A stretch of 64,000 bases of DNA from an uncultured delta proteobacterium (GCA_963834795.1 CAWIDL010000032.1:168769-232768), one strand, 5' to 3'. Positions 13,386 to 63,799 are shown, numbered from the stretch's first letter. Numbers and translations are program-made. The notes: a model not told the origin generated them from the letters alone.

Positions 13386-13960
13386 GCCTGCCAAGCTGTG
13401 ACAAGACTTCCTATCGCGGCAGCGCCTGATGATCCGGTGAGTTTAAGCAATTGAAATTAGAGATACTCAGTAGTCACCCTGCTCAGCCGCAAAGGGCCCT
13501 CACCTCTCAAGAATTGTCTGATAAAAATTCCCCAGGCTAATCCTAAGTTTGTCGCATAAATTCCCTTGTCCTAAGGGTGATTTTTGGTTAGATAAATTGT
13601 ATCCTGTGCCTTGCTTTAAGTTTTGCCGCCGCAGGCTTTCCAGCCTAAGCCGGTGCAGGGTTTTGGTTTTTGGTTTTTTTTGTAAGAGGCCCTGCGGCTA
13701 CATTTGCCTTTTTCGGTTGCCCGTCTCCGCGTCCTCTGCGTCTCTGTGGTGAACGCTTGGGCCCGGCGGCTACATTTGCCTTTTTCAATTGCCCGGTCTA
13801 TGCATAATCTTTGACGGACACTCCTGATATGTAATATTCTTAATGGGAGAATCTTATATGGGGTCCCTTATTTATCCCCTCTCCCCCGATGGGGGAGAGG
13901 GTTAGGGTGAGGGGGAAGATAATCTCATTTACGCCCCCATTAATAATCAGCGACCCTCTC

Positions 13961-14544
13961 ATGGCAGACTTGAATAACCCTAAAAGCAGGTTTTTTGACT
14001 ATTTGCTGGCAAGCAACCAACCTCTGATGGACGGTTTTGATCATTGGCTCTTCCAGGCGGGGATGTTGTTCGGCTCCTGGGAAAAATGGTGGGGTGATGG
14101 GAAGAAGAGAGCCATGGCCCACGAAGGCCTGGACCTCTGCGGTTTTCAAGATTCCCTGGGCGCCGCTAAAGTGGTGGACCTGAGTCTAAAGATACCTGCT
14201 GCCTTTGCCGGGAAGATCGTAAAGATTGCCGGCGATTTTCTGGGAAAATCAATTTATCTCAGCCATGAGATCTTTTCTGAAGACAGCCTCCAGCTCTATA
14301 CCATCTATGGCCACACTGAGCCCCTGGCATCCATGGCCCCCTCCCAAGAAGTGGCGGAAGGACAGATAGTCGCCACCCTCTCCCGGTCCTTTGGCAAAAA
14401 CCCCACCATTCCTCCCCACTTGCACGTCACCTTTGTCTGGCTGCCTGCTCCCCTGCCCCCCGCGGGTTAACCTGGCAAAACCTGAGCCATGATCCTGCCA
14501 TCCGGTTCATCGATCCCCTGACCGTTTTGTCGCCCCCCGCCTGA
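13961..14544 (+). pseudogene. M23-family metallopeptidase, copy A, frameshifted near the 3' end
   Basis: Near-identical to 20829-21413 but lacks one C near 14465 (GCGGGTTAA vs GCGCGGTTAA), giving a premature stop. Confidence 0.75.
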
Positions 14545-14727
14545 AGTCTCGCTTTCTCCAGCCAAGCGTATGGTCACGGATGGGGCATATTGACCAAAGG
14601 TGGAGGGAGTCCAGGTCTCCGGGGTTCCCCTTTTCGACTCTAAACCTGGGCAGGGACCACAGGGGGCGAGCCCCCAGGCCAGTCGTGGCGAGGATGCAAG
14701 GGTGGGCGGCGAGTGGCCTATGGAGAA

Positions 14728-14924
14728 GAACCTATCACCCAGGGCCGTCGACGCTGGTGGTGCGCCTGCCCTCTGGGAGCGATAAGCGTGGAAACTTTAC
14801 CCCCACGGGCGTGGGGACAATGCAAGCCGAAAAACGACAGAGAAAGCGGCGTGGGCGGTCACCAAGAGCACATAAATTATGGATATGGGAAGTTTTTGGC
14901 CCTGTGATAAGTGTCGGATCATAG
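14728..14924 (+). repeat. Junction module R, copy 1 (others 21597-21793, 32366-32562)
   Basis: About 197-bp conserved block from GAACCTATCACCC to CTGTGATAAGTGTCGGATCATAG, containing a CCCCAC-GGGC-GTGGGG hairpin. Confidence 0.9.
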
Positions 14925-14994
14925 GAGTGAGTTTGCAATGGGCGATTTTTGTTATATACATATTGTGTAAACTTGCTGGTCCCTATTTTTTGCC

Positions 14995-15273
14995 ATAGGG
15001 CGGGAAAGTGAAACGCATCCCGCCTTGAGCAATTGGGTAAGGCCTAACGTATGCCGCAATATATTCGCGCCTTTGTTCCTGGCGGCACGTTCTTCTTCAC
15101 GGTCACTCTGCTGGAACGCCGCCGGAAACTCTTGACCGAAACCTATTTAAGCTTTCACCGATACGTGGAATGCGACATTTATATAACGTAAGAATGGGCG
15201 GCAGATGATAACGTTCGAAATATAGAGATGAGATAATGCTAAAGGCGGGATGCGCTACGCTTTCCCGCCCTAC
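14995..15273 (+). mobile_element. Internally deleted REP-associated tyrosine transposase (RAYT/TnpA-REP) flanked by inverted REPs
   Basis: Inverted 30-bp REPs at 14995-15024 and 15244-15273 (GTAGGGCGGGAAAG..CATCCCGCC). Between them, MPQYIRAFVPGGTFFFTVTLLERR (from 15051) is joined to an SFHRYV-type C-terminal remnant. Confidence 0.8.
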
Positions 15274-15472
15274 GGGCTGTCAATGAAGCTTGGTAGCCGC
15301 AGGATTTGCACTGATATAAGTGGCGCGTGCGGTGAAAATAGGCTTCCGCATGACCACAGCGAGGGCACTTGAAGCCTTCGGGCCAACGCAACCGAAACAA
15401 TTGTTTCTGACAGGCTTTTTTGGTACCAAACTTTTTTTGAAATTGTAGCAGACTGAGCGTTTTCTGTTGCAT
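15274..15472 (-). pseudogene. IS1595-family transposase N-terminal zinc-ribbon fragment
   Basis: F..KFGT..AC...L...RWPEGFKCPRCG..LYQCKSCGYQASLTA; similarity stops at the REP. Confidence 0.85.
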
Positions 15473-15672
15473 GAGTTTGCTCCAATTCGCTATATATTTT
15501 AATTAATTATAGCATATTGATCGGAGCAAAATCAATAAGCGTTATATTCTATTTGCTTCCTACCTTCGGTCTAACAACGTATCGCAGCAGGAAGGAAGAC
15601 ATCTAATACTTTGCAAGGATGAGGGCCGGCACCAAGCCCAAAACCCATAGTTAGCGGGCATTATCGGGAAGT

Positions 15673-18171
15673 TTATTCTATGGCGCTCTTCGCGAGCTCC
15701 CGGGCTTCCTCGACTTTTCTCTTATCCTCGGAACTGAGCTTTTCCGGACCGATGTCGATGACCACTTTCTTGAGGGTGCCGGTGAACTTGAAGGGCATCT
15801 TCGCGGCGTAGTCCTCAGAGACCGGGGTGCCGGTGTCCTCGCCGATGTCCAGCGTCTCATCGAGGGAGATGCGGAACGGCAGCGTCCGTTCGATGCGGCC
15901 TGCTGCGGCTTTCTGGCCGTCCACGGTCAGGGTGGCCATGCCGCCCTTGCCGATGCCGCCGCCGTCATACTTGAAGTCCAGCATGATGGTATGCTTGCCG
16001 GCCGGAAGCTTGTCCCTGCCGGCGACCTGGTAACGGGCCACCCCGGCGAGGTTATAGAGAAAGACGGGCTTGTCGTCCAGCAGGTAGAGGCCGTAGCCGC
16101 TAAAACGGCCGCCCTGGGTCACCAGCATTCCTTGGGCGCCGCCTTCAGGAATCTCCACTTCCGCGGTGAGCCGGAAAGACTTGTTTTTAATGTCCGGTGC
16201 GGCGCCTTCCGGAATACGCACCATCCCCGGGAAGTAGGTGAATTCGCTGCGCCCCCTGGTGAGGCTGGGCCGAATCGCCGTATCAAAGCGCTCAAGCATC
16301 GAGGTCTGGATCGGGTAAACGTTGTACTTCCACGCTTCCCGGTCAAACAGCGCCTTCAGTTCCTTGAGTTTGGCCGGGTACCGGGCTGCCAGGTTGTTGG
16401 CCTGGCTGAAGTCCTTGGTCACATGATAAAGCTCCCATTTAAAATCGTCGGGGTTAGGCTCCGGGCCCGGTACCCAGTTCAGAGCCAGGGGGGTGGTGCT
16501 GGCCATCCAGCCGTCATGATAAATGCCGCGGTTGCCAATGATCTCAAAATACTGCGTTTTGTGCCGGCTGGGGGCCCCCGGGTGGTCGAAAGTGTACATC
16601 ATGCTCACGCCCGCCAGGGGCTTCTGTTTCACGCCATTCAGCATCGTGGGAAACTTGAGGCCCGTGGCTTCCATGAGGGTAGGCACGATGTCAATGACGT
16701 GGTGGAACTGAGAACGAATGCCGCCCTTGTCCTTGATGCGCGCCGGCCAGGAGATGACCATGCCGTTGCGGGTGCCGCCGAAATGGGAGGCGATTTGTTT
16801 GACCCACTGCAACGGCGTATCCAGGGCATGGGCCCAGCCTACGGGATAGTGATTGTAGGTCAGGGGCCCGCCGAGATCGTCCATGCGGCGGAGCACTTCA
16901 TTGAAGTCTTCAGGGATGCCGTTCCAGAACGTCATCTCATTTAGCAAACCCTGCAGGGTGCCTTCGGAGCTGGCGCCGTTGTCGCCCTGGATGTAGATGA
17001 TCAGGGTATTGTCCAGCTCGCCCAACTGCGCGACCGCGTCAACAACCCGGCCGATCTGGTAATCGCAGTGCGCCAGGGCCCCGGCATACACTTCCATCAT
17101 GTGGGCGTATAACCGCTTATGGCCGGCGTCCAGGGTGTCCCACGCCGGGATCGACTCTGGCCGCGGCGTCAGCCTGGTGTCGGCGGGGATGAGGCCCAGT
17201 TTTTTTTGCCGCTCAATGGTTTCCTCGCGCAACTTATCCCACCCCTGGTCGAACTGGCCCTTGAACCTGGCGATCCATTCTTTCGGCGCATGAATTGGAG
17301 CATGGGTCGAACCCGGGACATAGTAGGCGAAGAAGGGCTTGTCGGGCGCCAGGGCGTGCTGCTCGCGAATCCAGGCGATGGCGTGGTCGGCCAGATCACG
17401 GTCCAGGATGTAGGTTGGATCATTATATGGAGGCTCTATCGGTCGGGTGTTCTCGACGAGCGCCGGGTGCCACTGGTCGGTTTCGCCGCCGATGAAGCCA
17501 TAAAAGTATTCGAACCCGAGACCGGCGGGCCAGAGATCGAAGGGCCCAGCCTGGCTGCCTTGCCAATCGGGCACGTTGTGGTCCTTGCCGAACCAGGAGG
17601 TGTTGTAGCCATTCTGCCTCAGCACCTCGCCGATGCTGCCGCAACTCTTGGGCAACAGGGTATTGTAGCCGGGATAGCCGGTGCCCGTCTCCATGACTAA
17701 TCCGGTGGCGCAGGTATGATGGTTCCGCCCGGTGAGCAGCGCCGCCCGGGTGGGCGAGCAGAGGGCGCAGGTATTAAACTGTGTAAAGCGCAGGCCGTTG
17801 GCGGCCAGCCGGTCCAAGGTCGGGGTGGGGATGGGCCCGCCGAAGGTGCTGGCGGCGCTAAAACCCACGTCGTCCGTCATGATCAGCAAGATGTTGGGCG
17901 CTCCCTTGGGGGCCCGCACCTCCTTGGGGAAATCCGGTTTGGAGTCCTTGGTAGTGCGTCCGATCTTGCCGCGGAACGGCGGCTCCGGCCGCGGCAAAAC
18001 TTCCTGAGCGGCCTTGGCGGCTTCGGCCTTGGCGGCTTCGGCCGGCGACTGCGGCGCGACGAGGGCTCCCACCGTGCCGGTCCCAACGGCAAGCCCGGTA
18101 AGTCCCACGGTCTTCACGAAATCCCGGCGGGTAAATCTTGTACCTTTCGGATTCGGGCTCATGGTAACCAC
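15673..18171 (-). CDS. Tat-exported Cys-type arylsulfatase
   Basis: TRRDFVK Tat signal; PNILLIMTDD, CSPTRAALLTG (CxPxR), GKDH and GDNG motifs. Confidence 0.95.
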   Translation of the reverse strand: MVTMSPNPKGTRFTRRDFVKTVGLTGLAVGTGTVGALVAPQSPAEAAKAEAAKAAQEVLPRPEPPFRGKIGRTTKDSKPDFPKEVRAPKGAPNILLIMTDDVGFSAASTFGGPIPTPTLDRLAANGLRFTQFNTCALCSPTRAALLTGRNHHTCATGLVMETGTGYPGYNTLLPKSCGSIGEVLRQNGYNTSWFGKDHNVPDWQGSQAGPFDLWPAGLGFEYFYGFIGGETDQWHPALVENTRPIEPPYNDPTYILDRDLADHAIAWIREQHALAPDKPFFAYYVPGSTHAPIHAPKEWIARFKGQFDQGWDKLREETIERQKKLGLIPADTRLTPRPESIPAWDTLDAGHKRLYAHMMEVYAGALAHCDYQIGRVVDAVAQLGELDNTLIIYIQGDNGASSEGTLQGLLNEMTFWNGIPEDFNEVLRRMDDLGGPLTYNHYPVGWAHALDTPLQWVKQIASHFGGTRNGMVISWPARIKDKGGIRSQFHHVIDIVPTLMEATGLKFPTMLNGVKQKPLAGVSMMYTFDHPGAPSRHKTQYFEIIGNRGIYHDGWMASTTPLALNWVPGPEPNPDDFKWELYHVTKDFSQANNLAARYPAKLKELKALFDREAWKYNVYPIQTSMLERFDTAIRPSLTRGRSEFTYFPGMVRIPEGAAPDIKNKSFRLTAEVEIPEGGAQGMLVTQGGRFSGYGLYLLDDKPVFLYNLAGVARYQVAGRDKLPAGKHTIMLDFKYDGGGIGKGGMATLTVDGQKAAAGRIERTLPFRISLDETLDIGEDTGTPVSEDYAAKMPFKFTGTLKKVVIDIGPEKLSSEDKRKVEEARELAKSAIE

Positions 18172-18425
18172 CTCATAGACTTATGGTTAATGATTATTAA
18201 AATTTAGCCCAATCTAAATCCGGTTTTTATTATAATGCAGGGCAGGACCGCCGGCTTAACCGCCAGGCTCCCGAAGAGGCGTTCATGGTGTCCTCCTTTA
18301 ACGGTGGGGCTATTGACATCCTTTTGCCAATTAATTCCTAAACTTTATCCTTTCCATGGAGATTACCTTAAGGCTCCTATGTGCGTAGTCAAGGGCACGT
18401 ATGCGCCAGATGCTTGTGTTGCTCA

Positions 18426-18477
18426 CTTGCCACTAGCCGCTCTCCTGAGATCTTTGCATATGATTCGAATATGGAAA
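18426..18477. repeat. Diverged copy of junction motif P with a near-perfect palindromic site
   Basis: CTTGCCACTA..ATCTTTGCATAT-GATTCGA-ATATGGAAA; arms at 18453-18461 and 18469-18477. Confidence 0.7.
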
Positions 18478-18740
18478 TCTGTTAAAATGAAAAAGCCCTG
18501 GGTCGAAATCCCCAGGGTTGCAAATGAACTTTTACTTGATTCAAACTCTCAAATTTGAAATCATACTGGCAAAAATACATGGCGAAATTTTCGCCATTTT
18601 ATGTCAACTCGCCAAGGGGCCTTCTGTCCAAGCCCTTGAAATTATCAGGCATGTAGATGCCTGTTTTGACAGGAAAAAGTCCCAGTGGGTCTCGATCCGC
18701 AGCTGCCGGTAGCCATCTTCCAGGGAAGCCATTTCCCACT

Positions 18741-20051
18741 TCATCGCGGCTTCTCCGGCCGCCAACTCGAAGCCAGGAGGCTGCGGGCCTCCTTTACCAC
18801 CGGAGCGCCCAGGCTGCGGACGATTCTCTGGATGTAGGGATCGATATGGGAAAAGAATTGCTTCCAGCCCCGGCACAGGTAGTTCAGCCCCGGCTCGCCC
18901 TCGGGGGTCTTTAGGAAGCGGTTCTTGGGGCATCCGCCGAAGCAGGCAAACTCATACTCGCAGCGCCGGCAGTATTCGGGGAGGGTTCCTTCCTTGCCCT
19001 TGCCGAAGCGCTCCTGGCCCTCTGAATAGGCCAGGTCTTCCAGGGGTTGTTCGAGGATATTGCCCAGGCGGTACTCGGGATAGACGTAGTGGTCGCAGGC
19101 ATAAACCGAGCCGTCGTGCTCCAGGGCCAGCCCCTTGCCGCACATGGGGGCCTGGGTGCACAGGGGCGAGATGTGTCCCATCCAGGTCTCCACCGCGGCC
19201 TCGAAATAATGCACGTAGATCTGTCCCAGGTCCTTCCGGTACCACTCGTCGAAGATACGGCAGAGAAACTCGCCCCAGTCATCCGGATCGACGCACCAGT
19301 CCTCCACGATGGACTCGGGATGGCCGGGCCGTGCCTGGGGAGAACCATCCAGCGGCAGGAGCCGCTGGCCCCCGTACTGCGGCGGCGTATACCAAAAGCC
19401 CACGGGCTCGACGATGGGAATGAATTGCAGGCGTTTGGCGCCCACCTCATCCCGGAGAAACCGATAGACCTGGAGCGGCTGCCTGGCGGTCAGCCGGTTC
19501 ACGCAGCTCAGGGTGGCAAAGTTGACCCGGTGTTTTTTAAGCAGCCGGGCCGCCCGGAAGACCCGGTCGAAGCTCCCTGCCCCCGTCTTGTCCTTGCGGT
19601 AATGGTCATGCAGTTCTTTGGGGCCGTCGAGGCTTAATCCCACCAGGAAATTATGCTCCCCCAGGAACTCGCACCAGGCCTCGTCCAGGAGGGTACCGTT
19701 GGTCTGGAGGTCGTTCTCACAGCGGACATGGGGCGGGCAGTAGCGCTGCTGCAACTCCACAACCCTACGGAAGAAGGACAGGCCCAGCAGGGTGGGCTCT
19801 CCCCCCTGCCAGGAAAAGACAACCTCCTGGTAGTTTTGGCCCTGGAAATATTGGCGGATAAAGGCCTCCAGAATTTCGTCGGTGATGCGCCAGCGGTTTT
19901 CCGTGGTGAGCAGGACCTGCTTGGAGAGATAATAGCAGTAGGTGCAGTGGAGGTTGCAGAGCGGCCCCGTGGGCTTCACCATCACGTGCATACGCCGCAC
20001 GGGCTTGCCCCGCCAGAGACGGGCCTTGAATGCTTGGGGCTCTCTTCCCAC
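18741..20051 (-). CDS. Anaerobic sulfatase-maturating radical SAM/SPASM enzyme (anSME)
   Basis: KPTGPLCNLHCTYCYYL, WQGGEPTL, QTNGTLL, YACDH and C..C.....C.GGCPK SPASM motifs; adjacent to the sulfatase. Confidence 0.95.
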   Translation of the reverse strand: MGREPQAFKARLWRGKPVRRMHVMVKPTGPLCNLHCTYCYYLSKQVLLTTENRWRITDEILEAFIRQYFQGQNYQEVVFSWQGGEPTLLGLSFFRRVVELQQRYCPPHVRCENDLQTNGTLLDEAWCEFLGEHNFLVGLSLDGPKELHDHYRKDKTGAGSFDRVFRAARLLKKHRVNFATLSCVNRLTARQPLQVYRFLRDEVGAKRLQFIPIVEPVGFWYTPPQYGGQRLLPLDGSPQARPGHPESIVEDWCVDPDDWGEFLCRIFDEWYRKDLGQIYVHYFEAAVETWMGHISPLCTQAPMCGKGLALEHDGSVYACDHYVYPEYRLGNILEQPLEDLAYSEGQERFGKGKEGTLPEYCRRCEYEFACFGGCPKNRFLKTPEGEPGLNYLCRGWKQFFSHIDPYIQRIVRSLGAPVVKEARSLLASSWRPEKPR

Positions 20052-20245
20052 AACTATCTTCTCGCCCCGCCTTGCCTGTGGACCTGCCGCGTTATCGTGA
20101 TAGGCCTCTCTTCAAGAATTTTTCTAACTGATGGGTTAATTAATGCTAAGAACTCCTCCCTGAGTGTCAATCGTTTGTCTTCAGAATGCTTTCCCGAAAA
20201 CGATTTTTCCTGGGCTATTGAAAGGTGAATTAAAAGCGTCACTAA

Positions 20246-20400
20246 CTTGCCACTATACGCCCTTCCGCTAATCTTTCCATATGATGCGTATCTCAGAAAC
20301 TTTTGTAAATGGAATTTGGATTGGTAATTTTAAAAGATTGAAAAATTTTCAGGGAGATCATATTGACCAGGGGGGACGGGACTCCAATCCCCGGGGTTGC
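20246..20400 (+). repeat. Junction motifs P+Q (155 bp, near-identical to 44494-44648)
   Basis: CTTGCCACTATACGCCCTTCCGCTAATCTTTCCATATG through GGGACTCCAATCCCCGGGGTTGC; 2 mismatches seen between the copies. Confidence 0.95.
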
Positions 20401-20461
20401 TTCCCTCCAATTTTCGTCCCCTCCGGTCCACCCAAAATCATTTGAGAGTGTTAACAATAGA

Positions 20462-21793
20462 CGGCTACATTTGCCTTTTTCAGTTGCCCGTCTCCGCGTC
20501 CTCTGCTTCTCTGCGGTGAACGCTTGGGCCCTGCGGCTACATTTGCTTTTTTCAGTTACCCGGTATATACATAATCTTTGACGGACTCTCATGATATTAA
20601 TCGGAGCGTGAAATAGATTAATTTTTCACAGTTACACTCAAGGGAGATGGAATTTTGGGAAATCCAAGGTTAATCAATTTTTTGCTCTGAGTAATATATA
20701 ATGTTATTAATGGGAGCATCGTATATGGGGTCCCCTCTTTATCCCTCTCCCCCGATGGGGGAGAGGGTTAGGGTGAGGGGGAATTTAATCTCTTTTCCGC
20801 TTCCGTTAAAATAATTAACGACCCTCTCATGGCAGACTTGAATAACCCTAAAAGCAGGTTTTTTGACTATTTGCTGGCAAGCAACCAACCTCTGATGGAC
20901 GGTTTTGATCATTGGCTCTTCCAGGCGGGGATGTTGTTCGGCTCCTGGGAAAAATGGTGGGGTGATGGGAAGAAGAGAGCCATGGCCCACGAAGGCCTGG
21001 ACCTCTGCGGTTTTCAAGATTCCCTGGGCGCCGCTAAAGTGGTGGACCTGAGTCTAAAGATACCTGCTGCCTTTGCCGGGAAGATCGTAAAGATTGCCGG
21101 CGATTTTCTGGGAAAATCAATTTATCTCAGCCATGAGATCTTTTCTGAAGACAGCCTCCAGCTCTATACCATCTATGGCCACACTGAGCCCCTGGCATCC
21201 ATGGCCCCCTCCCAAGAAGTGGCGGAAGGACAGATAGTCGCCACCCTCTCCCGGTCCTTTGGCAAAAACCCCACCATTCCTCCCCACTTGCACGTCACCT
21301 TTGTCTGGCTGCCTGCTCCCCTGCCCCCCGCGCGGTTAACCTGGCAAAACCTGAGCCATGATCCTGCCATCCGGTTCATCGATCCCCTGACCGTTTTGTC
21401 GCCCCCCGCCTGAAGTCTCGCTTTCTCCAGCCAAGCGTATGGTCACGGATGGGGCATATTGACCAAAGGTGGAGGGAGTCCAGGTCTCCGGGGTTCCCCT
21501 TTTCGACTCTAAACCTGGGCAGGGACCACAGGGGGCGAGCCCCCAGGCCAGTCGTGGCGAGGATGCAAGGGTGGGCGGCGAGTGGCCTAGGGAGAAGAAC
21601 CTATCACCCAGGGCCGTTGACGCTGAAGGTGCGCCTGCGCTCTGGGCGTGATAACCGTGGTTACATTGGCCTCCCGGGCGTGGGGACAACGGTAGCCGAA
21701 AAACGACAGAGAAAGTGGCGGGGCCGGCCTCCAAGAGCACATGTATTCTGGATATGGAAAGTTTTTGGCTCTGTGATAAGTTTCGGATCATAG
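20462..21793 (+). repeat. Long direct repeat, copy B
   Basis: Partner of 13695-14924, with about 100 bp of extra sequence near 20590-20700 and a more diverged R module. Confidence 0.95.
20829..21413 (+). CDS. M23-family metallopeptidase-like protein, intact copy
   Basis: HEGLD (HxxxD), YGH and PHLH (HxH) motifs. Confidence 0.8.
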   Translation: MADLNNPKSRFFDYLLASNQPLMDGFDHWLFQAGMLFGSWEKWWGDGKKRAMAHEGLDLCGFQDSLGAAKVVDLSLKIPAAFAGKIVKIAGDFLGKSIYLSHEIFSEDSLQLYTIYGHTEPLASMAPSQEVAEGQIVATLSRSFGKNPTIPPHLHVTFVWLPAPLPPARLTWQNLSHDPAIRFIDPLTVLSPPA

Positions 21794-21807
21794 CAGGTAT
21801 ATTGAAC

Positions 21808-24459
21808 TCATCCCTCGCCGTGCAAGATAAGTCCCGACCAGAAGTAGGGATGGGGTTCTTTGGCCCGCACTTCCTGGCGGGCGACCTTCAGAGCCTCGCT
21901 CTTTGATTTCCCCTCTTTCAAGGTTTTATAAAAGGTCTGGTAAAACTTCAGGGACTCGTCCACCGGGATATTCCACAGGGCCACCATGACGCTGCGGGCC
22001 CCGGCCTGTTGGAAGGCCCGGGCGAAGTTGAGCACGCCTTCCCCCTGCATCACCCGGCCCACCCCGGTCATGCAGGCCGCCAGGGTGACCATGTCGGCGT
22101 CCAGTTTCAATTGCAGCACCTTGCTGAAGCTCAAAAAACCGTCATCGGGAGGCTTATTCTCCACCTGGGTCAGCACCAGGGTGGGTTCCTGCACCCCGGA
22201 CAGCTTGTCCGCCAAAAACCCGTGGGTGCCGAAAAACAGGTAACGATACTGGCTCAAAGTCGTTTGGCGCACCCTGGTTTCGGTGGCGTTGACGTCCAGG
22301 AGCACCTGGGGCGGCTGGGGCTTCTCCTGGAAGAGGGCCGCCAGTTCCGTTACGGTCTGGCGGGTCTCGGGGAGCGGCGGGAACTCCAGCCGGCCCCAGC
22401 CCCGGTCGGTGGCCGCCATGGTCATGGCCTTCTCGGGCCCGGCATGCTTGATCTCCCCCGCCTTTTCCTTCCCCGCCTTATAGGCCAGATAGCGGCTGCT
22501 GTCCTTGTCGTAGATGCAATCACCCAGGCCAAAGAGTGATTGAGTGGCGCGGGTCGTCCCCAAATGACGGTTCAGGGCCAGGATGGCGGCGGATTGGGAA
22601 TAGGTGACAGGCCAGCGGTCCCCCACCAAGGTGCATTTACCCCAATCCGATCCCGCCTGCACCACCAGGGCCTCGAAGGGAAAGGCCCCCAGGGCGCCGT
22701 CCGGCACGATGATCAGTTTGGTGCCTGGATTCACCCCGGCCAGGGCCGGGGCCAGGATTTCCTGATACAGGGCGGCGGCATCGTTTATGGAAAAGCGGGA
22801 TAAATCTTCGCGCCGCAGGACGCTCTGGCGGAAGGGCGCCAGCATGGCGCCCAGGCGCTTCTCCAGGGCCTCCTGGTTCACGGCCAGATGGAAGACCTGG
22901 GTCTTGCCCCCGGGCTCCACCCGGAATAAATAACTCTCCTTTTCCGCCAGTGCGTATTCCAGCAGCACCTCTCCCGGCTTCAGGGGCAGCTCCTGGGCCT
23001 TATACGGTTGGGGGTAGGCCATGGCGGCGTAGCGAGGCTCCCGGCGGCGCAGCTCGGTGACAAACCCATCGATTTCCCGTTGCAGGGCCTCCTGTTTTAA
23101 CTGGAATTCCAGGACGGGCTCCTCTTTTCGGTCACGGAACCCACGTTCCTGCATCCGTTCCAGCCTTTGTCCTTCTAGCTCCTGCAGGTTTTCCTGGAGA
23201 CTCTTTTCTTTTGCTGCCAAGTCCGGGGGCAACTGGGAGGCTACCCGGGCCGCCCCGGCGGCCAGGGCCTCCAGCATCGAACGGGCCTTGATGGCCTCAG
23301 AAAAATAGAAGGCCGCGGCCGCGGGGTCCTGTCCATAAGTTTGCAAGCCCGAAGGGGCAGGCTCGCCTTTTAGGGCCATCTCCCCCAAAACCTCCGTCAT
23401 ACCCCGATAGGCCCGAAAATAGCCGCCCATGAGGCCGGACTCGAAGAAACTGGTGCGTTCCCCCGAAGTTCGAGACCGCAGCCCTTCGATATTCTTAATG
23501 GCCTCCAGGAAGGCGGCAAACGCCCCGGGCCGGTTTCCTAACCCCTTGAGAGCCAGCCCCTTTTGCGTGTAATACTGCGCCTGGTATTGGGCCCGGTTCC
23601 AAGCCATGGGAGTAAGTTTAGAAGTCAAGAGGCTCAGTGCTGAATCGTACTTGCCGGTAGCCAAGTAGAGTTCCACCATCCCCAGGTCGCCTTGCCTACC
23701 CTGGGCCCGGCGGAAAGTAGATTCCGCCTGGCCGTAATCTTTCTTGGCCAGATAGAGAAATCCCAGGTTCCTGAGACTCACATTGGTCCAGAGGTTTTCC
23801 GGTCCCAACGCCTTTTCCCTGATCTCGGCGGCGCGCCGGGCCAGGGGCAGGGCCTGGTCATAGGACCCCATCTGGGTATAAAGGGTCGCCAGGTTGTTCA
23901 GGGCGGCCGCGGTCTGCGGGCCTTCCGGCCCCGAGACCTTCTCGCTGATCTGCAAAGCTCGCTGGCTCGGGGCCAGGGCCTTGTCATGCGCCCCCATCTG
24001 CCCATAAACAAAGGCCAGGACCATCAGGCTTTGGGCGGTCCGGGGATGTTCCGGCCCCAAGGCCTTCTCGCTGCGCTGCAGGGCCTGCTGGGCCAGGGGC
24101 AGGGCCTGGTCGAAGGAGCCGAGCTGAGAATATAACCAGGCCAGACGGGCCATGCTGGCGATGGTGAGGGGATGGTTCGGCCCCAGAGCCGTCTCGCTGA
24201 GCTTCAAGGCCTCCTGGAACGGGCGGAGGGCGCGTAAGAACATACTACTGTCCACATAATTATTGCCCTCTTTAAGCAGTTCCTTGACCTTGGCCGCCTC
24301 CGGCTTCTGGCCGGCGGCGGGCATTTCTTCATCCGCGGCAGCCTGGGTGGCCGGAGCGGCACCGGGACCTATTTTCGCGGCATAGCCAGGAGGTCCCATT
24401 AACCCCAGGAGCGTAAGGCAAAGGCAAACAGAGATGATCCAACGCATATTGTCCTCCAT
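21808..24459 (-). CDS. Secreted TPR-CHAT (caspase-like) protease
   Basis: N-terminal signal peptide, about 42-aa TPR-like repeats (ALGPEHP.TA.SL), CHAT motifs IVPDG, FFGTHG, LAACMTG, HPYFWSG. Confidence 0.93.
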   Translation of the reverse strand: MEDNMRWIISVCLCLTLLGLMGPPGYAAKIGPGAAPATQAAADEEMPAAGQKPEAAKVKELLKEGNNYVDSSMFLRALRPFQEALKLSETALGPNHPLTIASMARLAWLYSQLGSFDQALPLAQQALQRSEKALGPEHPRTAQSLMVLAFVYGQMGAHDKALAPSQRALQISEKVSGPEGPQTAAALNNLATLYTQMGSYDQALPLARRAAEIREKALGPENLWTNVSLRNLGFLYLAKKDYGQAESTFRRAQGRQGDLGMVELYLATGKYDSALSLLTSKLTPMAWNRAQYQAQYYTQKGLALKGLGNRPGAFAAFLEAIKNIEGLRSRTSGERTSFFESGLMGGYFRAYRGMTEVLGEMALKGEPAPSGLQTYGQDPAAAAFYFSEAIKARSMLEALAAGAARVASQLPPDLAAKEKSLQENLQELEGQRLERMQERGFRDRKEEPVLEFQLKQEALQREIDGFVTELRRREPRYAAMAYPQPYKAQELPLKPGEVLLEYALAEKESYLFRVEPGGKTQVFHLAVNQEALEKRLGAMLAPFRQSVLRREDLSRFSINDAAALYQEILAPALAGVNPGTKLIIVPDGALGAFPFEALVVQAGSDWGKCTLVGDRWPVTYSQSAAILALNRHLGTTRATQSLFGLGDCIYDKDSSRYLAYKAGKEKAGEIKHAGPEKAMTMAATDRGWGRLEFPPLPETRQTVTELAALFQEKPQPPQVLLDVNATETRVRQTTLSQYRYLFFGTHGFLADKLSGVQEPTLVLTQVENKPPDDGFLSFSKVLQLKLDADMVTLAACMTGVGRVMQGEGVLNFARAFQQAGARSVMVALWNIPVDESLKFYQTFYKTLKEGKSKSEALKVARQEVRAKEPHPYFWSGLILHGEG

Positions 24460-24486
24460 TGGGGGGCGGGTGATGGGGGCCCCTGA

Positions 24487-25239
24487 CTATTTTCCCCTAG
24501 CCGCTTGAGACCGGACACAGGCCTTAAGGTCCTTCAGGGCGGCATCCCCCGGCCGTTTTTGCAGCATGGCGTCCACCACCTTGGCCATTTCCGGAAACTG
24601 CTTATACTCGGCCAGAACCCCGAAGAAATACAATTCCGGGGTGACATCATCGGCCGCGGCGCCCTTCTTTAACTCCTGGTAAAGCATCTCCGCTTCCTTG
24701 ACCTTCCTCTGGGACTCTCCGGAGAGCGGCGCCGGGGCCGCCGCCTTTTCCGGTGCGGGGCAGGTGGGTGCCATGGTCTGGATGACCCCGGATTTGCTGA
24801 GGCTGGCAGGAAGCAGGACCGGCGGCGCCCCCGCCATCTGCCGGCTCGCCTTGACCGGTAGGATCTTTACTTCCGGCGGGGACGGCGGTTGCTGGCCGCC
24901 GGCGGCGGCACTCTCCGTATCTCCGGCAATTAAAGTTCCCGGCCCCTTCCAGGTCTCCTGGCGGCCGCTAGCGAAGTACAGCAGCGTGAGCGACCCCGCC
25001 TCCGGAAGCATAAGTCGGTCCCCCCGGCGGACCTTCATAAAGGCCTGCACCTTGACTGGCTCTTTGTTCTCGGTTTTATTCGAGAACGTGACTTCACCGG
25101 AAACTTTGGTGATCAGGCCCACGTCGGGCAAGGAAGTTTGGGCAGCCGCGGTGGCCGCCAGAAAGACGGTCAACACCGTCAGGCACAAGAGACCGCTGAG
25201 TTTAATTCTGCTTTTGGCCTTCATCATCGCTCCCTCCAT
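24487..25239 (-). CDS. Exported protein with a FecR-like beta-rich N-terminal region (paralogue of 27854-28604)
   Basis: Signal peptide ending AAA; GLITKVSGEV..FMKVRRGD..YFASGRQETW.GP..TPELYF.GVLA.YKQ shared with the paralogue. Confidence 0.75.
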   Translation of the reverse strand: MEGAMMKAKSRIKLSGLLCLTVLTVFLAATAAAQTSLPDVGLITKVSGEVTFSNKTENKEPVKVQAFMKVRRGDRLMLPEAGSLTLLYFASGRQETWKGPGTLIAGDTESAAAGGQQPPSPPEVKILPVKASRQMAGAPPVLLPASLSKSGVIQTMAPTCPAPEKAAAPAPLSGESQRKVKEAEMLYQELKKGAAADDVTPELYFFGVLAEYKQFPEMAKVVDAMLQKRPGDAALKDLKACVRSQAARGK

Positions 25240-25712
25240 CGTGGAAGGCTATAATTTTTTTAAGTAATCACTTTTTTAACAAATTCCAGGCATAGCAGAC
25301 CAGGCAGACACCGCGGGTGATGGTGCGCCAGAGAAAACCGAAAGCCACGTGCACATTCCACCTTCAGGCCAGTATCAGCCAACTTGAAGCCTTCATACTT
25401 CAGCATTAGCACAGTAATTGTCCCACATCTTTGCGAACAGCGTAGCAATAAAACGAGCAAGGCACCGGATATAAAGCTCCATCCTCGGCCCATGATTGGT
25501 TCCTTTTTCCTAAAATAACAGCCTACTAAATCGGGACTATGGAACGGCTGGATCTCGTCTACCCTACGTCAAGGCTCCGGGTCCTTTCCCTGAACCTCAG
25601 ACCCAAGACGCCATCCATGTCGGCGGCCTTCCTCCTCTTGGTCAGCATGATAGCATAAACCCGAATTGCCTTCCTGGTGGCTATTCTTTGATGGCAATCT
25701 GTCTGCGGTTAA

Positions 25713-27123: not shown

Positions 27124-27272
27124 AATACGCTCCTTTTTTTGATGTGCAAGTGGTATTGGTTTGCTGAGGTCCCTCAATAAGGCACTAAGGCCCTGGGGCC
27201 GGGTATTCAACCCCAACAGCAGGGCCGGAGAGTCTGAAAGACCTTTCTGCAAGATACCGGTGCGTTTGGATC

Positions 27273-27599
27273 CTATTCCACTTGTCCCATAGTTTTTATC
27301 TTTTCTTTCTTCTGATGTTCCATTTGTCCTTCAGTTTTCATCTCTCCGGATTCTTTCTTCTGATGTTCCATTTGTCCCCTAGTTTTTATCTTTTCTTTCT
27401 TCTGAGGTTCCATTTGTCCTTCAGTTTTCATCTCTCCGGATTCTTTCTTCTGAGGTTCCAATTGTCCTTCAGTTTTCATCTCTCCGGATTTCTTGAGTTC
27501 CCCTGCCTCATCTTTGCCCTGGCCCAGCGCGGGAACCACCAGCATAGCACTCAATATAGTACAGAGTGCCACCAGCTTGAAATTGAACTTACTGCTCAT
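27273..27599 (-). CDS. Small secreted protein made of tandem 14-16-aa repeats
   Basis: Signal peptide, then alternating KKESGEMKTEGQMExQ and KKEKIKT(R/M)GQ units; matching DNA repeats; GGAG RBS. Confidence 0.8.
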   Translation of the reverse strand: MSSKFNFKLVALCTILSAMLVVPALGQGKDEAGELKKSGEMKTEGQLEPQKKESGEMKTEGQMEPQKKEKIKTRGQMEHQKKESGEMKTEGQMEHQKKEKIKTMGQVE

Positions 27600-30480: not shown

Positions 30481-30620
30481 GTTTTGTAACCTGTAGATCC
30501 TATCTCGAAGTGCTCATCTGACCTTGGCTGGGATTATGCCGCATCTATAGCTGTTTCTGTCACAACGAAGTTTTCGGGACCATTTGCCCCGAGGGAAGGC
30601 TTCAAAACGATCCTCTTCTC

Positions 30621-56036: not shown

Positions 56037-56490
56037 ATGGGCAACCTGACTTCCACCCTCTCCTGGCGTTCGGCTCCACCGCCTTTGTTCTCCAAACAGA
56101 ATCTTCCCCGGAAGATGCAGTGGCTGGATCTGGGGCTCAAGTTGCTGGTGCCAGTCATCTTGCTGGTGTTTCTGGCGATCTCCCTTAAGTTGGGCTCCTT
56201 GACGGTCTATTTCCGGCTTCTCAACCGCCAGAGCTATGCTTCTTTGGTGCCGGCCCTGGGAGCTGCCTACACTTTGCCGGTGCTGCTCTTTCAGGTGTTC
56301 CGCACCATCCTCTGGGCGCGCTATAAGCCGTATCCCCTTTCCCCGTCCTTGCCCTCCGCCACGGTCATTATCCCGGCTTACAATGAGGGGGCCATGGTGG
56401 AAAAGGCCATCTATTCGGTGATTGCCTCCGAATACCCTGCGGACCGGCTGGAAATCATCTGCATCGATGACGGTTCCCAAGATGATACCA
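56037..56490 (+). pseudogene. N-terminal fragment of a GT2 (hyaluronan-synthase-like) glycosyltransferase
   Basis: TM helices, VIIPAYNEG, EIICIDDGSQDDT; similarity stops near 56490 and the frame runs to a stop at 56582. Confidence 0.85.
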
Positions 56491-56679
56491 GGTGTCAATC
56501 ATGGCCATGTCCAACTAACTTGGGCGATTATCAACCTACCCCCCTTATAGCACAAAACCACGGGAATTTCCGCTTCTCTTGACAGGTCGATTTCAGCTGA
56601 TCCCGGGGTGAGGAAGATGGGCCTCTATAAATGGGCCTTCTATAATTGGATATTTTATGCGACCGGTTCAGGGCCACAG

Positions 56680-56750
56680 AGTGTAGGAGTCCCGTCCCCG
56701 GGGTTGCCCTCCCGGGCCGAAAATCTATGGGTCCGTGGGGCGGCGCCTTG
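56680..56750 (+). repeat. Junction motif Q, diverged copy
   Basis: GTAGGAGTCCCGTCCCCGGGGTTGCCCTCCCGGGCCGAAAATC..GGCGGCGCC. Confidence 0.75.
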
Positions 56751-58227: not shown

Positions 58228-58843
58228 AGAATTCTTGTACTTAACCGGGCATCGTGAAGCGGATAGCGGAACACTACCCAAAAGGCCTCATAACCACAAT
58301 AAAGGAGAAATGTTTGACAAGTTAAGATGGTGATTTCAGCGTTAATTATAGAATGAATCCGGCACTGTTAATGTTCCGATCCAGCAGCAGCCGACAGATG
58401 AGCCTATGGAGAGCCTAATAGCGAATCGGAGACGCAGACTATTACTATTATGGCTCCCACTTTTCCGTTTACAATTCCGGTTAATAATTTATTCTGGATT
58501 ATGCGGCGCAATTTGATGGAAATATGGACAACTACTTGATATAGGGGGGAATAATTAGCAAATTGGGGGTCTCCAGGATACTTGCTAGTGGTGAAAGCCA
58601 AAAAAGGTGATCCGGCCGGATTTTAACCGGGCCATCCTGATCGATTTCCAGGGCGCCCAGGTCACTTCAGACACAGGTTTTATCCTGCTACGAGAGCTCG
58701 ATGACCGTTTCAGAATCATCGCTCCCCTGGGAGATTGCCTGGAAGACTTGAGGTCACTTGTACATTAGCCCTCAAAGCTACCGCATAATTTTGATTAGGT
58801 TGCCTTAAAGTTTACTAAGAAAATCCCAAATAAGGAGGCTACG

Positions 58844-59849: not shown

Positions 59850-60056
59850 TCTACGAGCGCAGATGCAAATCCGAGATTAGGTTTTCGGCACGGACAAGCA
59901 TAAGTGCGGCTCTTCTGAATATAGTCGGTGCAATGATGTGCAAGCGAGGTCTTAATCAGATCAAACTCAACAATAGCTCTATGCATGGTTCTTTAATTGT
60001 TTTTTGACAAACGTGGCCATGGTTGCCGCATAATCTCAGGTCAAGGAGGATTAACA

Positions 60057-60827
60057 ATGATCCGCAAAATTAAACATTATGGATGGATCCCTGATTTGCC
60101 AGATCATCGGGATCACATGTATGCTGCCTCATTAAGAGGTTTGCAAACCCTGCCGACAAGTGTTGATCTTCGTCCTCAATGCCCAAAAGTCGTCTATGAT
60201 CAAGGCCAACTGGGCAGTTGCACGGCGAACGCCATTGCGGCCGCCATTGAGTTTGACCGGATAAAGGAGAACTTGTCGGATTTCATCCCCTCTCGTCTGT
60301 TCATTTACTACAATGAGCGGGCAATGGAAGGCACTGTGGACTCCGATAGCGGCGCGTCCATCCGGGATGGAATAAAGAGTGTGGGAGACCAGGGGGTTTG
60401 TCCTGAGACCGAATGGCCCTACGACATTTCACAGTTTAACGTGAAGCCGCCGGATAATTGCTACCAAGATGCGGTAAAAGATAGAGCAGTGCAATACAGC
60501 TCGTTAACCCAGGACCCCAATCAGTTGAAAGGGTGCCTGGCCGAAGGCTACCCGTTTGTCTTCGGCTTTTCAGTTTATGACAGTTTCGAAAGTCAGGCCG
60601 TGGCGAACACAGGAATCGTTCCGATGCCCAACCCGGCGACGGAGACGCTGCAGGGAGGCCATGCGGTGCTGGCGGTAGGTTACGACGACAGCCAGCAGCG
60701 TTTTATCGTGAGGAATTCCTGGGGGGACGGTTGGGGGATGAAAGGCTATTTCACTATGCCTTATGGCTACCTGACTGATTCCAATCTTAGCGATGATTTC
60801 TGGACCATTCGACTGGTCAGTCCATGA
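60057..60827 (+). CDS. Papain-family (C1A) cysteine peptidase
   Basis: YGWIPDLPD.RD short pro-region, QGQLGSCTAN (Gln/Cys), GGHAV (His), RNSWG (Asn). Confidence 0.95.
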   Translation: MIRKIKHYGWIPDLPDHRDHMYAASLRGLQTLPTSVDLRPQCPKVVYDQGQLGSCTANAIAAAIEFDRIKENLSDFIPSRLFIYYNERAMEGTVDSDSGASIRDGIKSVGDQGVCPETEWPYDISQFNVKPPDNCYQDAVKDRAVQYSSLTQDPNQLKGCLAEGYPFVFGFSVYDSFESQAVANTGIVPMPNPATETLQGGHAVLAVGYDDSQQRFIVRNSWGDGWGMKGYFTMPYGYLTDSNLSDDFWTIRLVSP

Positions 60828-61036
60828 GTTCATAGCTAATAGGCTGTTGCCAGTTTACCATGGAGGGCTGGGCGAAGCGGAGCTTAAATGTCCCGGGGAG
60901 GCAGGGCGGGTTCCAGACCAAGGTTCTGCCCCGGGGTCGCCAATATAAGGCCGCGATAGCCCCGAATCTGTCCCTGCTGATTCTGGCCGGAATCAGCAGC
61001 CGCTGCCCAGCCTTCCATGATAGAGAACATCTAAAA

Positions 61037-61360
61037 ATGTCTATTCTGAAACTAAACCATAAAGATAATGATAGTACGATTGAAGCCCGGCGAGGTGACC
61101 TAATCACGGTCAGTCTCCACGAGAACCCCACCACTGGTTACAGGTGGGTAGTTGATAATATTGATCGGAAGATCCTGGAATTTCAGAAAGCGGAATTTCA
61201 TCTGGCCCCAAAAGCCAGCGTAGGTGGAGGTGGAATAAGAATTTTTAAGTTTCAAGCCATTAGCGCTGGTAGTTTTAACCTTGCTCTGAAGCTGCGGCGG
61301 GAGTGGCAGGGTGATGCCTCGATCATCGAGCGCTATCATATATCCATTAAGGTCTTGTGA
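61037..61360 (+). CDS. Chagasin-family (I42) cysteine peptidase inhibitor
   Basis: ENPTTGYRW, VGGGG and RREW loops. Confidence 0.9.
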   Translation: MSILKLNHKDNDSTIEARRGDLITVSLHENPTTGYRWVVDNIDRKILEFQKAEFHLAPKASVGGGGIRIFKFQAISAGSFNLALKLRREWQGDASIIERYHISIKVL

Positions 61361-61535: not shown

Positions 61536-61564
61536 GATACCAATATTAGGGGAGGGTGAGGGGC

Positions 61565-61948
61565 ATGGGAGACATGGCGCCTAACTTTAATCGGTCTGAG
61601 TTTGCCTGCCATTGCGGGTGCGGCCTGGACTCAATCCATCCCGATACCGTGGCGGCCTTGCAAAAGTTGCGGGATTTAGCCAAGGCCCCGGTGGTGATCA
61701 CCTGCGGTTGCCGGTGCGCAGCCCATAACGCTGCGGTGGGCGGGGCGGCTCACAGCTTCCATCTACCCGACCAAGACTGCCGGGCCTCAGACTGGCAGAT
61801 TGCCGGGCTGAGCATCGACCAGATGTACGCACTGGCGGAGCAGATCCCGGAGTTCTACCACGGCGGGATCGGGAGATATTATCGCAGCGGCTTTATCCAC
61901 AGCGACACCAGATCCTATCAGTCCAGGTGGGCTGATCGGGAGGTTTAG
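61565..61948 (+). CDS. Peptidase M15A-like (D-Ala-D-Ala carboxypeptidase / endolysin type)
   Basis: NF..SEFAC.CGCG, GCRC..HN..VGGA..S.H....A.D, FIH.D.R. Confidence 0.88.
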   Translation: MGDMAPNFNRSEFACHCGCGLDSIHPDTVAALQKLRDLAKAPVVITCGCRCAAHNAAVGGAAHSFHLPDQDCRASDWQIAGLSIDQMYALAEQIPEFYHGGIGRYYRSGFIHSDTRSYQSRWADREV

Positions 61949-62190
61949 CATTAGGGGTTCGGGGCAGGATGATGTCTCGATCATTGAGCGCTATAGCGTA
62001 TCCATTAAGGTGTTGTGATTTCTCCCTAGGACAGCGTGAGAAATCGCCTTTGAGGCTGGGACCCGACGGCGCGCCACCACGCCCGGCCTCTTCGAATTGC
62101 TGGTTATTTCGCCGACAGGCAATAGGGTTTCCCCGGTAGAAATTAAAGCCACGATTGAGATATTCCTATCAGTCAAAGGGAGGAAAGGCC

Positions 62191-63441
62191 ATGAAATTAC
62201 AAGACTTCTTGTTAAAGCTTGCCACCGATCCCGACATGTTAGCAAAGTTCAGGGTTGAGCCAAATACCATCATGATCGAAGCAAGCTTGTCGGAATCTGA
62301 GTGTCAAGCCGTCATGGAGGGTAATGTGCCGAAGCTGCGGGGGCACCTTTCTAGAGAATCCCATTCTCAGGAGGCTTTTACTGAGTATGAAGTCTCCCAA
62401 GTACCTCCGACACAGTCCCCCCCGCCTCAAGAGGAACCTCATCAGGAACCTCCTCAAGAGGAACCTCCTCAAGAGGAACCTCATGAACCATCTCAGTACG
62501 AGCCCCCCCCTGAGGAGGAGCCGACGCAACAGATTATTGAACCTCCTCCAGAGGTGGACGCCGAGGCCCCGATTGGCGCCGCGCTGTCCAACTGGCATAT
62601 TTGGGATCTCCGAGAGCCTGCACGCTTATGGGATGCTACCGGCCTTACAGTTGTGGGCTTGGGGATTCGTGGAGGGCTCCAGACCACACCTGAGGCCCGG
62701 GTGTGTATCAAGCAGGCCTCGAAAGTTCTTTATCTTGTCGCCGATCCAATTTCAGAATCCTTGGTTCGTATGCTAAATCCAACTGCAGAGTCGATGCATG
62801 GTTTCTACCAAAAGGGCAAACGCCGCCTGGAAGCTTACAACGCAATGGTGGAGCGGATTCTATCGTGTCTTCAAGAGAGTGGGGATGTCTGTGCCGTTTT
62901 TTATGGTCACCCCGGTGTGTTTTCTTACCCAGCGCGAGAATCGATCAGACGCGCCCGCCTTAAAGGGGTCAGTGCTAGGATGTTGCCGGGAATCTCGACT
63001 GAGGATAACTTAATCGCAGATTTGGGAATTGACCCAGGACCTCTGGGTCTGCAAAGCTATGAGGCCACTTCATTCCTTCTCTATAAATACCGATTCGATA
63101 CGTCCGTAGGGCTAATCCTCTGGCAGGTCGGCGTCCTGGGTGAGACTATCTGGGCCCCCCCTCATAAGGCCGCCCGTGATCGCTTAGATATTTTAGCTGA
63201 TTATCTGATAAACTATTACGGTGGAGACCACGAGGTTGTTTTCTATCATGCGCCTGAGCTCCCAGCCGGTCAGCCGGCCATAGAACGGTTGCGGCTGTCC
63301 GAACTTCCCCATGCTCAACTTTTGCACATCTCGACCCTGTACATTCCTCCCAAAGGGCGTCCAAGCTACGATTACGAGATGGCAAAAAGACTTGGCATGG
63401 AATGGCCGGCGATGTCTCCTGTGGCGGAAGGAGGAGGATAG
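62191..63441 (+). CDS. Borosin-type alpha-N-methyltransferase fused behind an N-terminal helical binding domain and a Glu/Pro-rich putative core
   Basis: N-terminal LQDFLLKLATDP..LAKF..EP..SLSESE..A bundle; QEEPP repeats; LTVVGLGI, Y-x5-R-x3-Y (YQKGKRRLEAY), FYGHPGVF, MLPGIS.ED.L.ADLG.DP, EAT.FL, LWQVG. Confidence 0.85.
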   Translation: MKLQDFLLKLATDPDMLAKFRVEPNTIMIEASLSESECQAVMEGNVPKLRGHLSRESHSQEAFTEYEVSQVPPTQSPPPQEEPHQEPPQEEPPQEEPHEPSQYEPPPEEEPTQQIIEPPPEVDAEAPIGAALSNWHIWDLREPARLWDATGLTVVGLGIRGGLQTTPEARVCIKQASKVLYLVADPISESLVRMLNPTAESMHGFYQKGKRRLEAYNAMVERILSCLQESGDVCAVFYGHPGVFSYPARESIRRARLKGVSARMLPGISTEDNLIADLGIDPGPLGLQSYEATSFLLYKYRFDTSVGLILWQVGVLGETIWAPPHKAARDRLDILADYLINYYGGDHEVVFYHAPELPAGQPAIERLRLSELPHAQLLHISTLYIPPKGRPSYDYEMAKRLGMEWPAMSPVAEGGG

Positions 63442-63635
63442 AGAGTTTGAATCACTTTAATAGGGAAAACTGGGAAATGTTTGTGGAGTGACCATGATTA
63501 CTATCTGAGGGAGCTGAGGAAGCTTTAGGTTTAGCCTGGGGGAATTTTTTCAGACAATTTTAGGAGGTGGCGGCCCGTTGCGGCTGAGCAGGGTTCCTTA
63601 TGATAGTTCATTAATTTCAATGAATTAAGCTTGGA

Positions 63636-63677
63636 ACGGATGTCACTTTCTCATGGAGGCCTCCAGGCGGCTCAGGC
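63636..63677 (-). repeat. Inverted copy of the gvpJ-like gene 3' end
   Basis: Reverse complement matches 13344-13385 at 40 of 42 positions. Confidence 0.9.
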
Positions 63678-63799
63678 ACCCGGTAGGGGGCAGGAGCTCC
63701 AGTCCGCGGTTTTCCACTTTTCGCCTTTATGGAACATTCCCATTTACCTCAATTTCGGCAGATTATGTGGGGAATAGTGTGGCGAATGGATTTCTAAGC

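Follow-up and report, generated by a model that had tools for sequence, protein, structure and literature searches.

The 64,000-nucleotide window analysed here (positions 168769-232768 of contig C32) comes from the genome of an uncultured delta proteobacterium (G000; 3.43 Mb, 32 contigs). The initial annotation of this window described blocks of cargo genes separated by one conserved, co-oriented junction module built of the motifs S, T, P, Q and R. The junctions are not a single module. S, T and the block before P (here called U) are ends of known insertion sequence (IS) families, and the parts of the junctions have four origins: an IS1380 element, an IS1111-type element, a phage and a small tyrosine-recombinase element. 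We consider it probable that a junction is made of IS1380 and IS1111-type ends, Q, and ends of the recombinase element, whose enzyme likely works in trans to build and rearrange arrays of gene blocks that run one way. In the following, C-numbers are contigs of G000, genomes from G001 upward are comparison genomes, and L-numbers are homologous loci from other genomes.

The recombinase element is approximately 1.05 kb long and consists of a left arm (XL), a single gene for a Xer-like tyrosine recombinase of about 280 aa, and a right arm (XR). Two copies are present in G000 (C14:6925-7965 and C24:115340-116381). They match at 1054 of 1091 aligned columns and have different flanks, with divergence starting at both cores. 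The recombinase contains the catalytic R-K-H-R-H-Y motifs. Conservation is bounded by NTAN/CTTGCCA on the left and by CATAGCAG/NTAN on the right, where the slash marks the boundary. A two-armed unit of about 100 bp has 68 profile matches in G000 (whole units, left halves and right halves), and fused arm-only mini-elements also exist. In nhmmer searches of G000, XL has 47 matches and XR has 24. The final 55 bp of R are XR.

Relatives of the recombinase occur at 66 loci, mostly titled Deltaproteobacteria or Desulfobacterota. The left core motif is found upstream of the gene in 30 of 38 near-full homologue loci (5 of 152 control windows), and the right core motif downstream in 19 of them (19 of 152 control windows). 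The family is large, with 5283 protein clusters at E<=1e-40 among 7224 candidates, and the names shown for these clusters are only generic integrase or XerD. The 255-aa part that was scored against Xer families falls below every NCBIfam cut-off (XerA, 119 against 220; XerC, 54 against 335; XerD, 49 against 330), and against the integron integrase model TIGR02249 it scores 47 bits (cut-off 265). In a survey of 36 loci, five of them without a recognisable start, the start is out of frame in 24 of the other 31, at a run of 8-9 A in 21 cases. A resolvase site was rejected as an identity for these ends, with no PF00239 gene in G000.

P occupies 20243-20362, 30892-30935 and 44491-44612 (all +), beginning in the first copy at NTAN/CTTGCCA. 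As the initial annotation reported, a 38-mer of P is identical at 20246, 30894 and 44494 and diverged at 18426; there are six exact copies genome-wide and 11 profile matches. The diverged copy, P', is a left-end variant, a 270-bp block that starts at the CTTGCCA core (18423-18692, +). P shares the left core and flanks with the recombinase sites but has a different arm. It also resembles, by eye, the ends in L126, L127 and L159. P may be the left end of a sister type, or a substrate of the same recombinase.

After merging, G000 contains 73 recombinase sites. Neighbouring sites agree in strand in 22/22 cases when up to 3 kb apart, 29/31 when up to 6 kb apart and 34/37 when up to 12 kb apart. There are 31 close site pairs, compared with a mean of 8.4 and a maximum of 19 in 2000 random draws. 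There are 57 left ends against 24 right ends, and as many as five left ends follow one another on one strand. Where Q is near a site, it is on the same strand (10/10). Where IS1380 3' pieces are beside left ends, the order is S-T-P in 16 of 17 cases, and such a piece adjoins only 17 of the 57 left ends. Taken alone, the IS1380 ends are co-oriented far more weakly than the recombinase sites (18 to 9). The initial annotation had named two observations that would refute its proposal, motifs scattered genome-wide without relation to synteny breaks and matches to the ends of a known IS or MITE. The second is observed for S, T and the block before P, which match known IS ends. Every motif recurs across the genome and none is specific to the window. 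The co-oriented sites mark breakpoints between unrelated cargo.

Partners are switched at NTAN/CTTGCCA. Among 101 distinct left ends (exact duplicates removed from 115), 22 pairs have flanks that are homologous on the outside, and in every one of these pairs the insides differ. In three duplicated blocks within the genome, identity is 97-99% over the 200 columns to the left of the core and 35-57% over the 60 columns to the right. These blocks are IS1380-derived, are 270-450 bp long, and begin exactly at the right repeat. Two of them are in the window: the left flank of P at 30892 is 97% identical to C32:132833 and that of P at 44491 is 99% identical to C14:125095, and a different arm follows in both of the other places. 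An exchange at the core is required to explain these three cases. Misassembly could swap partners; it could not create two different partners. The switching was presumably carried out by this recombinase.

Compared across assemblies, the window interval is variable among relatives. The end of the CHAT gene is next to R-XR in the window and next to left-arm-type sequence plus XR in three relatives (G002, G011 and G004). The sulfatase cargo is to the right of O-Q-R-XR in G006 as well (L214; O is a further motif, found together with Q). The 270-bp block of P' occurs behind different flanks in other genomes, and the cargo blocks match scattered places in the genus. The stretches fetched beyond the gas-vesicle (gvp) genes in G009, G007, G005 and G014 contain neither sites nor window cargo. 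A strict tandem pattern of a right arm-left arm junction has four matches, none with a full right arm.

The proposed mechanism would operate as follows. A recombinase encoded elsewhere in the genome would cut and rejoin DNA in trans at a short, relaxed core, and would also move its own arm-to-arm unit. A full left arm would pair with a minimal TAGC-like half-site, so that the intervening block is excised as a circle, which would then re-enter at another core in one direction. The IS1111-type element would target the core. IS1380 ends that were cut near the core would be retained as promoters for cargo that mostly reads towards the left arm, and phage remnants would ride along.

Several observations weigh against this reading. 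The 22 switch pairs represent only 7 flank groups, and two of the 7 are IS1111-derived ends that are explained by IS targeting alone. The cargo is only biased in orientation, with 31 of the 47 genes between sites reading towards the left arm (31 antisense to 16 sense, p 0.04, by heuristic gene calls). Among the joints listed for four sequencing runs compared with positions 13300-33299, there is no core-exact joint and no excised circle; this survey covers contigs only, which drop rare forms, and three of the runs are at low depth. Of the 38 homologue loci, the full left-arm profile matches just 10, the full right-arm profile 7, and both together 4. The recombinase query matches 4 of 15 genomes of the genus, whereas U is found in 13 of 14 g1 genomes. 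The C14 copy of the gene needs a frameshift on a run of eight A, and the C24 copy carries an extra A just after the start. P is never found attached to a recombinase gene, and an XL profile trained without P does not match P.

S and T together are the right end of an IS1380-family IS. G000 contains 13 matches to the IS1380 transposase (PF13701). Two are near full length and over the cut-off, one on C1 with an open frame and one on C21 with one stop. Alignment places S and T in the terminal 250-350 bp of both elements, and T encodes the C-terminus of the transposase (residues 404-437 of the C1 protein; for the copy at 30528, 79% over 33 aa, residues 404-436). Both full copies are bounded by related GATTATGCGG-type terminal repeats, and S begins at the right one. 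Read by eye, a possible 5-bp target duplication agrees at 4 of 5 positions at C21, and there is none at C1. The right end has 116 nhmmer matches in G000 and the left end has 20. In the window, S and T recur as the initial annotation placed them, with 70% identity between 30616-30770 and 44132-44284. The first S+T block (30528-30841, -) contains the right inverted repeat, a 3' untranslated region with a promoter-like site, and the transposase C-terminus; the second (44046-44300, -) contains the right end and the C-terminus. Other pieces of the same IS are a right end (S) at 27619-27833 (-), an internal fragment at 34386-34523 (-), a left end at 35251-35326 (-), a left end with the transposase N-terminus at 58494-58790 (+), and a right inverted repeat at 60000-60039 (+). 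A 3' fragment at 25300-25370 (-) is detected by the DNA profile only, with no protein-level match.

The IS1380 right ends likely serve as promoters for cargo. Within S there is an outward TTGACT-18-TATCAT site (30675-30646). An open reading frame (ORF) that is 100 aa or longer and has a ribosome-binding site begins 150 nt or less outward of 35 of 90 intact right repeats. The corresponding counts are 2 of 18 for left repeats and 28 of 184 for the control directions of hairpin repeats (right repeats against control, p 2.7e-5). Random genome positions are a poor control for this test (77/400), being mostly in-frame internal starts. This result suggests that about 90 IS ends are kept as promoters. 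The right inverted repeat at 60000 is 19 nt before a gene for a papain-family protease, which is followed by a chagasin-family inhibitor (59997-61360). A hairpin that resembles a repetitive extragenic palindrome (REP) is present at 13860-13945 and 20743-20809 and is repeated about 92 times across the genome.

The 145 bp between T and P, U (44344-44488, -), lie at the core of P. They form the right end, with 3' non-coding region and terminus, of an IS1111-type element in the IS110 family. U has 9 copies in G000 and is found in 19 of 51 genomes searched. In L036 (with one frameshift) and L042, transposase frames end about 200 nt inside the U terminus. From their motifs, we take these frames to be IS110-type transposases; G000 itself has no PF02371 match. 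L036 also contains the left end. By eye, CTATG(A)TGCAAAG subterminal repeats are present at both ends, the 3' region is about 200 nt long, and promoter halves are found at the right end (TTGACT) and the left end (TATGAT). The element inserts at one site, because its left ends abut the CTTGCC core at three independent places (C20, L036 and L029=L173) and a core-like TAN-C terminates most of the 27 flanks of right ends, a few of which are duplicates. The recombinase right arm was considered as the IS110 left end and rejected, the true left end adjoining the left core. A different recurring end, GCTGTCGAAAAAG, is found directly at right or inner cores at C22:141475, C26:77924 and C24:119990. It presumably belongs to an IS1182-like IS, which may likewise target the recombinase site.

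Q is probably a remnant of a prophage packaging region that is carried passively. In G000, Q has 26 matches and O has 19. With a looser scan, the Q pattern matches 10 viral contigs; two strict viral scans gave one match, in the host flank of a prophage, and none. Five of the 10 contigs contain a longer, AAATTT-type Q, in each case upstream, by a few hundred bases, of a small gene and of terL on the opposite strand. Of the other five, one is host flank, and four (two identical) are without the longer form and have no terminase among the ORFs scanned. The link to the terminase is weaker among the relatives of L178, where Q is upstream of terL in 2 of 11. Q/O is antisense and downstream of terS-like genes in only 5 of 22 family loci; its position relative to the small subunit is therefore not fixed.

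P-O-Q in relatives is frequently directed towards the 3' end of a tRNA, via paired repeats and a hairpin. In G000, 5 of the 26 Q copies are within 1.2 kb of a called tRNA and point at its 3' end. In the window, a weak Q, paired direct repeats and a hairpin precede the 3' end of tRNA-Asp (63680-63830, +; tRNA at 63845-63921, -), a layout that is shared with relatives. The repeats and hairpin likely served the integrase of a lost prophage as arm sites. At 14, 18 or 25 nt, the tRNA 3' end is found nowhere else in the genome. Next to a tRNA-Asp gene in G020 (L168, G020:C6:92000-108777), there is an island with an integrase, an excisionase, a DnaB helicase, a Clp/head protease and several O-Q copies. 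This island is a candidate parent of the Q remnants.

The middle of R has 8 nhmmer matches in G000, one of which is the CRISPR array at C24:202904-204210 (21 exact repeats). The R middle contains a solitary, degenerate copy of this repeat, with identity of 23-25/29 in three copies and 14-21 in four; one is at C26:77790. This repeat is possibly an RNA anti-CRISPR or a captured array end, and recalls the solitary CRISPR repeats of phages (PMC10651486). A coding role for P, Q and R was rejected, since the overlapping ORFs have no Pfam match, as was a structured RNA, since Rfam at the gathering threshold finds tRNA only. As DNA, P, Q, O-Q and R fold no better than shuffled sequences.

All five motifs are found where the initial annotation put them, although Q at 63685 is weak. 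Q is truncated at 14577-14631, 20352-20410 and 21446-21500 (+), partial at 56676-56750 (+), and also present at 44600-44690 (+) and in O-Q blocks at 31074-31240 and 32086-32280 (+). R recurs with 87-93% identity at 14714, 21583 and 32352. The three copies contain the R middle at 14714-14872 followed by XR at 14873-14926, which ends in CATAG-NAG/NTAN; the R middle and XR (21744-21796) at 21583-21796; and the R middle and XR (32511-32565) at 32352-32565 (all +). The CRISPR-repeat copies are at 14793-14821 (24/29) and 32431-32459 (25/29). The R at 14728 and Q at 14590 are present but are not independent copies. They are inside a duplication of about 1.2 kb, in which 13695-14927 (+) matches part of 20462-21796 at 91-95% identity (M23 peptidase gene, Q, R and right arm). 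The shared M23 block has a contig depth of 63 compared with about 30 in run X1, approximately twofold.

The genes to the left of all three P copies are on the minus strand, as had been reported. The sulfatase cargo (15673-18171, -) is followed, between P' and P, by a radical SAM/SPASM gene (18741-20051, -) whose product is likely the sulfatase maturase, judging from its neighbour. The second block (21808-30480, -) contains a CHAT/TPR gene, unknown genes and a CHASE2 adenylate/guanylate cyclase. The third (35364-43850, -) contains two NarL regulators, a hybrid PAS kinase and a multi-PAS protein. The gene fragments noted near the junctions are real. They are a NarL-type response regulator fragment (32845-33012, -), the C-terminal half of eboE (45057-45593, +; NF035939 positions 208-378 of 379), and a truncated family 2 glycosyltransferase (GT2) gene (56037-56500, +) that breaks off after Pfam position 42. 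Also in agreement with the initial annotation, the 58 window ORFs scanned with Pfam include no recombinase. An integrase, primase or terminase is likewise absent from these 58.

Other features of the window are as follows. A gas-vesicle cluster with a two-component system is found at 1217-13378 (three GvpL/F, GvpK, two GvpA/J and AAA ATPases), in what is a sediment or soil organism. The last gas-vesicle gene's 3' end, together with downstream DNA (13344-13546), recurs inverted at 63525-63677 with 81-93% identity, 50 kb away and just inside the tRNA-Asp end; there is no further copy in the genome. An inverted-repeat element at 14993-15275 has many copies, four of them in tandem at C21:17867-19236, and contains the start of a putative REP-associated tyrosine transposase. 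Tandem 42/48-nt repeats are found in a small secreted-type ORF at 27276-27503. A 440-aa P-loop ATPase (33013-34335, -) has a weak MoxR-type Pfam match and a paralogue on C27. At 62155-63441 (+), a tetrapyrrole-methylase-family protein has an N-terminal acidic, proline-rich repeat; we assume it to be a candidate borosin-type peptide N-methyltransferase.

The strongest competitor of trans-acting reshuffling, unlikely but with a real chance of being correct, is a plain small transposon with its graveyard. In that case, insertion would prefer targets that resemble the element's own ends and decayed IS ends, the cargo would never be a circle, and the one-way clusters and switches would result from repeated insertion with occasional deletion or rearrangement between cores. 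The same inside commonly has different flanks, as in any transposon, fused arm-only mini-elements occur, no circle is present among the joints listed, and the rest of the junction is all debris. The excess of left ends over right ends, the same-strand runs of up to five, and the recurrence of the same cargo ends at cores in different genomes and places count against it, although these fit both models. It is highly improbable that IS1380 transposition units, in which the transposase pairs its repeats with look-alikes as in ISEcp1 and carries the P, Q and R blocks, account for the junctions. The number of right-end matches, the intact transposase frame on C1, the start of the duplicated blocks exactly at the right repeat, and one P-O-Q block between two right ends (C26:75409-76161) agree with such units. 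However, the duplicated blocks end at the recombinase core and not at an IS-like repeat, most left ends have no IS1380 piece beside them, and the IS1380 ends are much less co-oriented. These units are largely refuted as the sole cause and may explain the multiplication of the S-T block.

The initial annotation offered two explanations. Satellite-like elements stacked by repeated integration at tRNA-Asp are very unlikely. Q is phage-derived and in relatives often aimed at a tRNA 3' end, and the L168 island is of the expected kind, but the tRNA-Asp 3' end is single-copy, the sites and motifs are spread over many contigs, and S, T, U, P and the end of R derive from other sources. A phage source holds for Q and not for the rest of the junction; the stacking explanation is refuted for the whole module and survives only for the final 200 bp in front of the tRNA. 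An integron-like array served in trans is borne out as regards co-oriented sites at breakpoints and a recombinase in trans, but not as regards IntI or attC. A classical integron, or a cluster of attC sites lacking integron integrases (CALIN), with unusual attC sites has almost no probability. One-way arrays of unrelated genes are present, and a C-terminal integron-integrase fragment lies as cargo beside a left arm at C14:10141-10503. However, G000 has no IntI match over the cut-off, none of six whole sites tested has attC R boxes, only one of the 12 strands folds with a z under -2, and the blocks are multi-gene with their own promoters. With its defining features missing, the integron is refuted.

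The reported module is largely ordinary debris left by IS and phages. New here are the four-origin breakdown, the partner switches at base level, the core-targeting IS1111-type element and the phage origin of Q. No published description of the recombinase element or of Q was found; the supplements of PMC8138268, which were outside the search, may list the family under Xer. If the recombinase does shuffle site-bounded blocks, sulfate-reducer relatives would gather accessory genes in an integron-like manner that integron and IS finders miss. A more elaborate version is rather improbable: an integron-independent capture system of Desulfobacterota, with a frameshift-throttled recombinase, IS1380 promoters, Q retained on some cassettes for packaging and spread by helper phages, and a core-specialised, RNA-guided IS1111. 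The recombinase ends and the crossover core are mapped well enough for a direct plasmid assay, and a simple recombinase with a relaxed core and a core-targeting IS1111 guide are possible tools.

The junction parts resemble several known systems. In ISEcp1, an IS1380-family element, an outward promoter is supplied to blaCTX-M (passages of PMC12589106). S+T is likewise the right end of a family member (PF13701, NF033539), with an outward -35/-10 facing the downstream genes; the difference is that about 90 right ends here are without a transposase, many of them cut at or near the recombinase core. With the IS1111 group (IS4321/IS5075 and IS1111-attC), as described in passages of PMC11187229, the element of U shares an IS110-type transposase, a long 3' non-coding stretch, subterminal repeats, half a promoter at either end, and a fixed target in the recombination site of another element. 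The target here is the left core of this recombinase, which those passages do not name. In phage packaging regions, Q is just upstream of the small gene and terL, as in the five viral contigs, whereas here it is orphaned in 26 copies and is a candidate pac site or promoter element.

The recombinase itself is most readily compared with Tn554 (TnpA) and RIT elements. According to passages of PMC8138268, these have a recombinase with binding and catalytic domains only, in a small mobile unit whose ends are defined. Here too, a recombinase with intact catalytic residues lies between defined ends at several places. Unlike the three-gene RitABC or TnpA/B/C layout, the element has one gene of about 280 aa, a slippery A-run in most copies, and dozens of gene-less ends. 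IntDes was rejected as an identity and belongs to a different family; in the same passages, it has an arm-binding domain and is limited to Desulfovibrio. Integrons and CALINs share with the present arrays the co-oriented, repeated sites between unrelated genes and a tyrosine recombinase able to act in trans. Their attC sites are parasitised by IS1111-type elements such as ISKpn4 and ISPst6 (passages of PMC11187229), as the sites are here. The arrays differ from them in having no IntI, attC boxes or folded single-strand site, in an enzyme that forms a mobile unit within its own pair of sites, and in blocks of up to 13 kb that mostly read towards the left arm from internal promoters.

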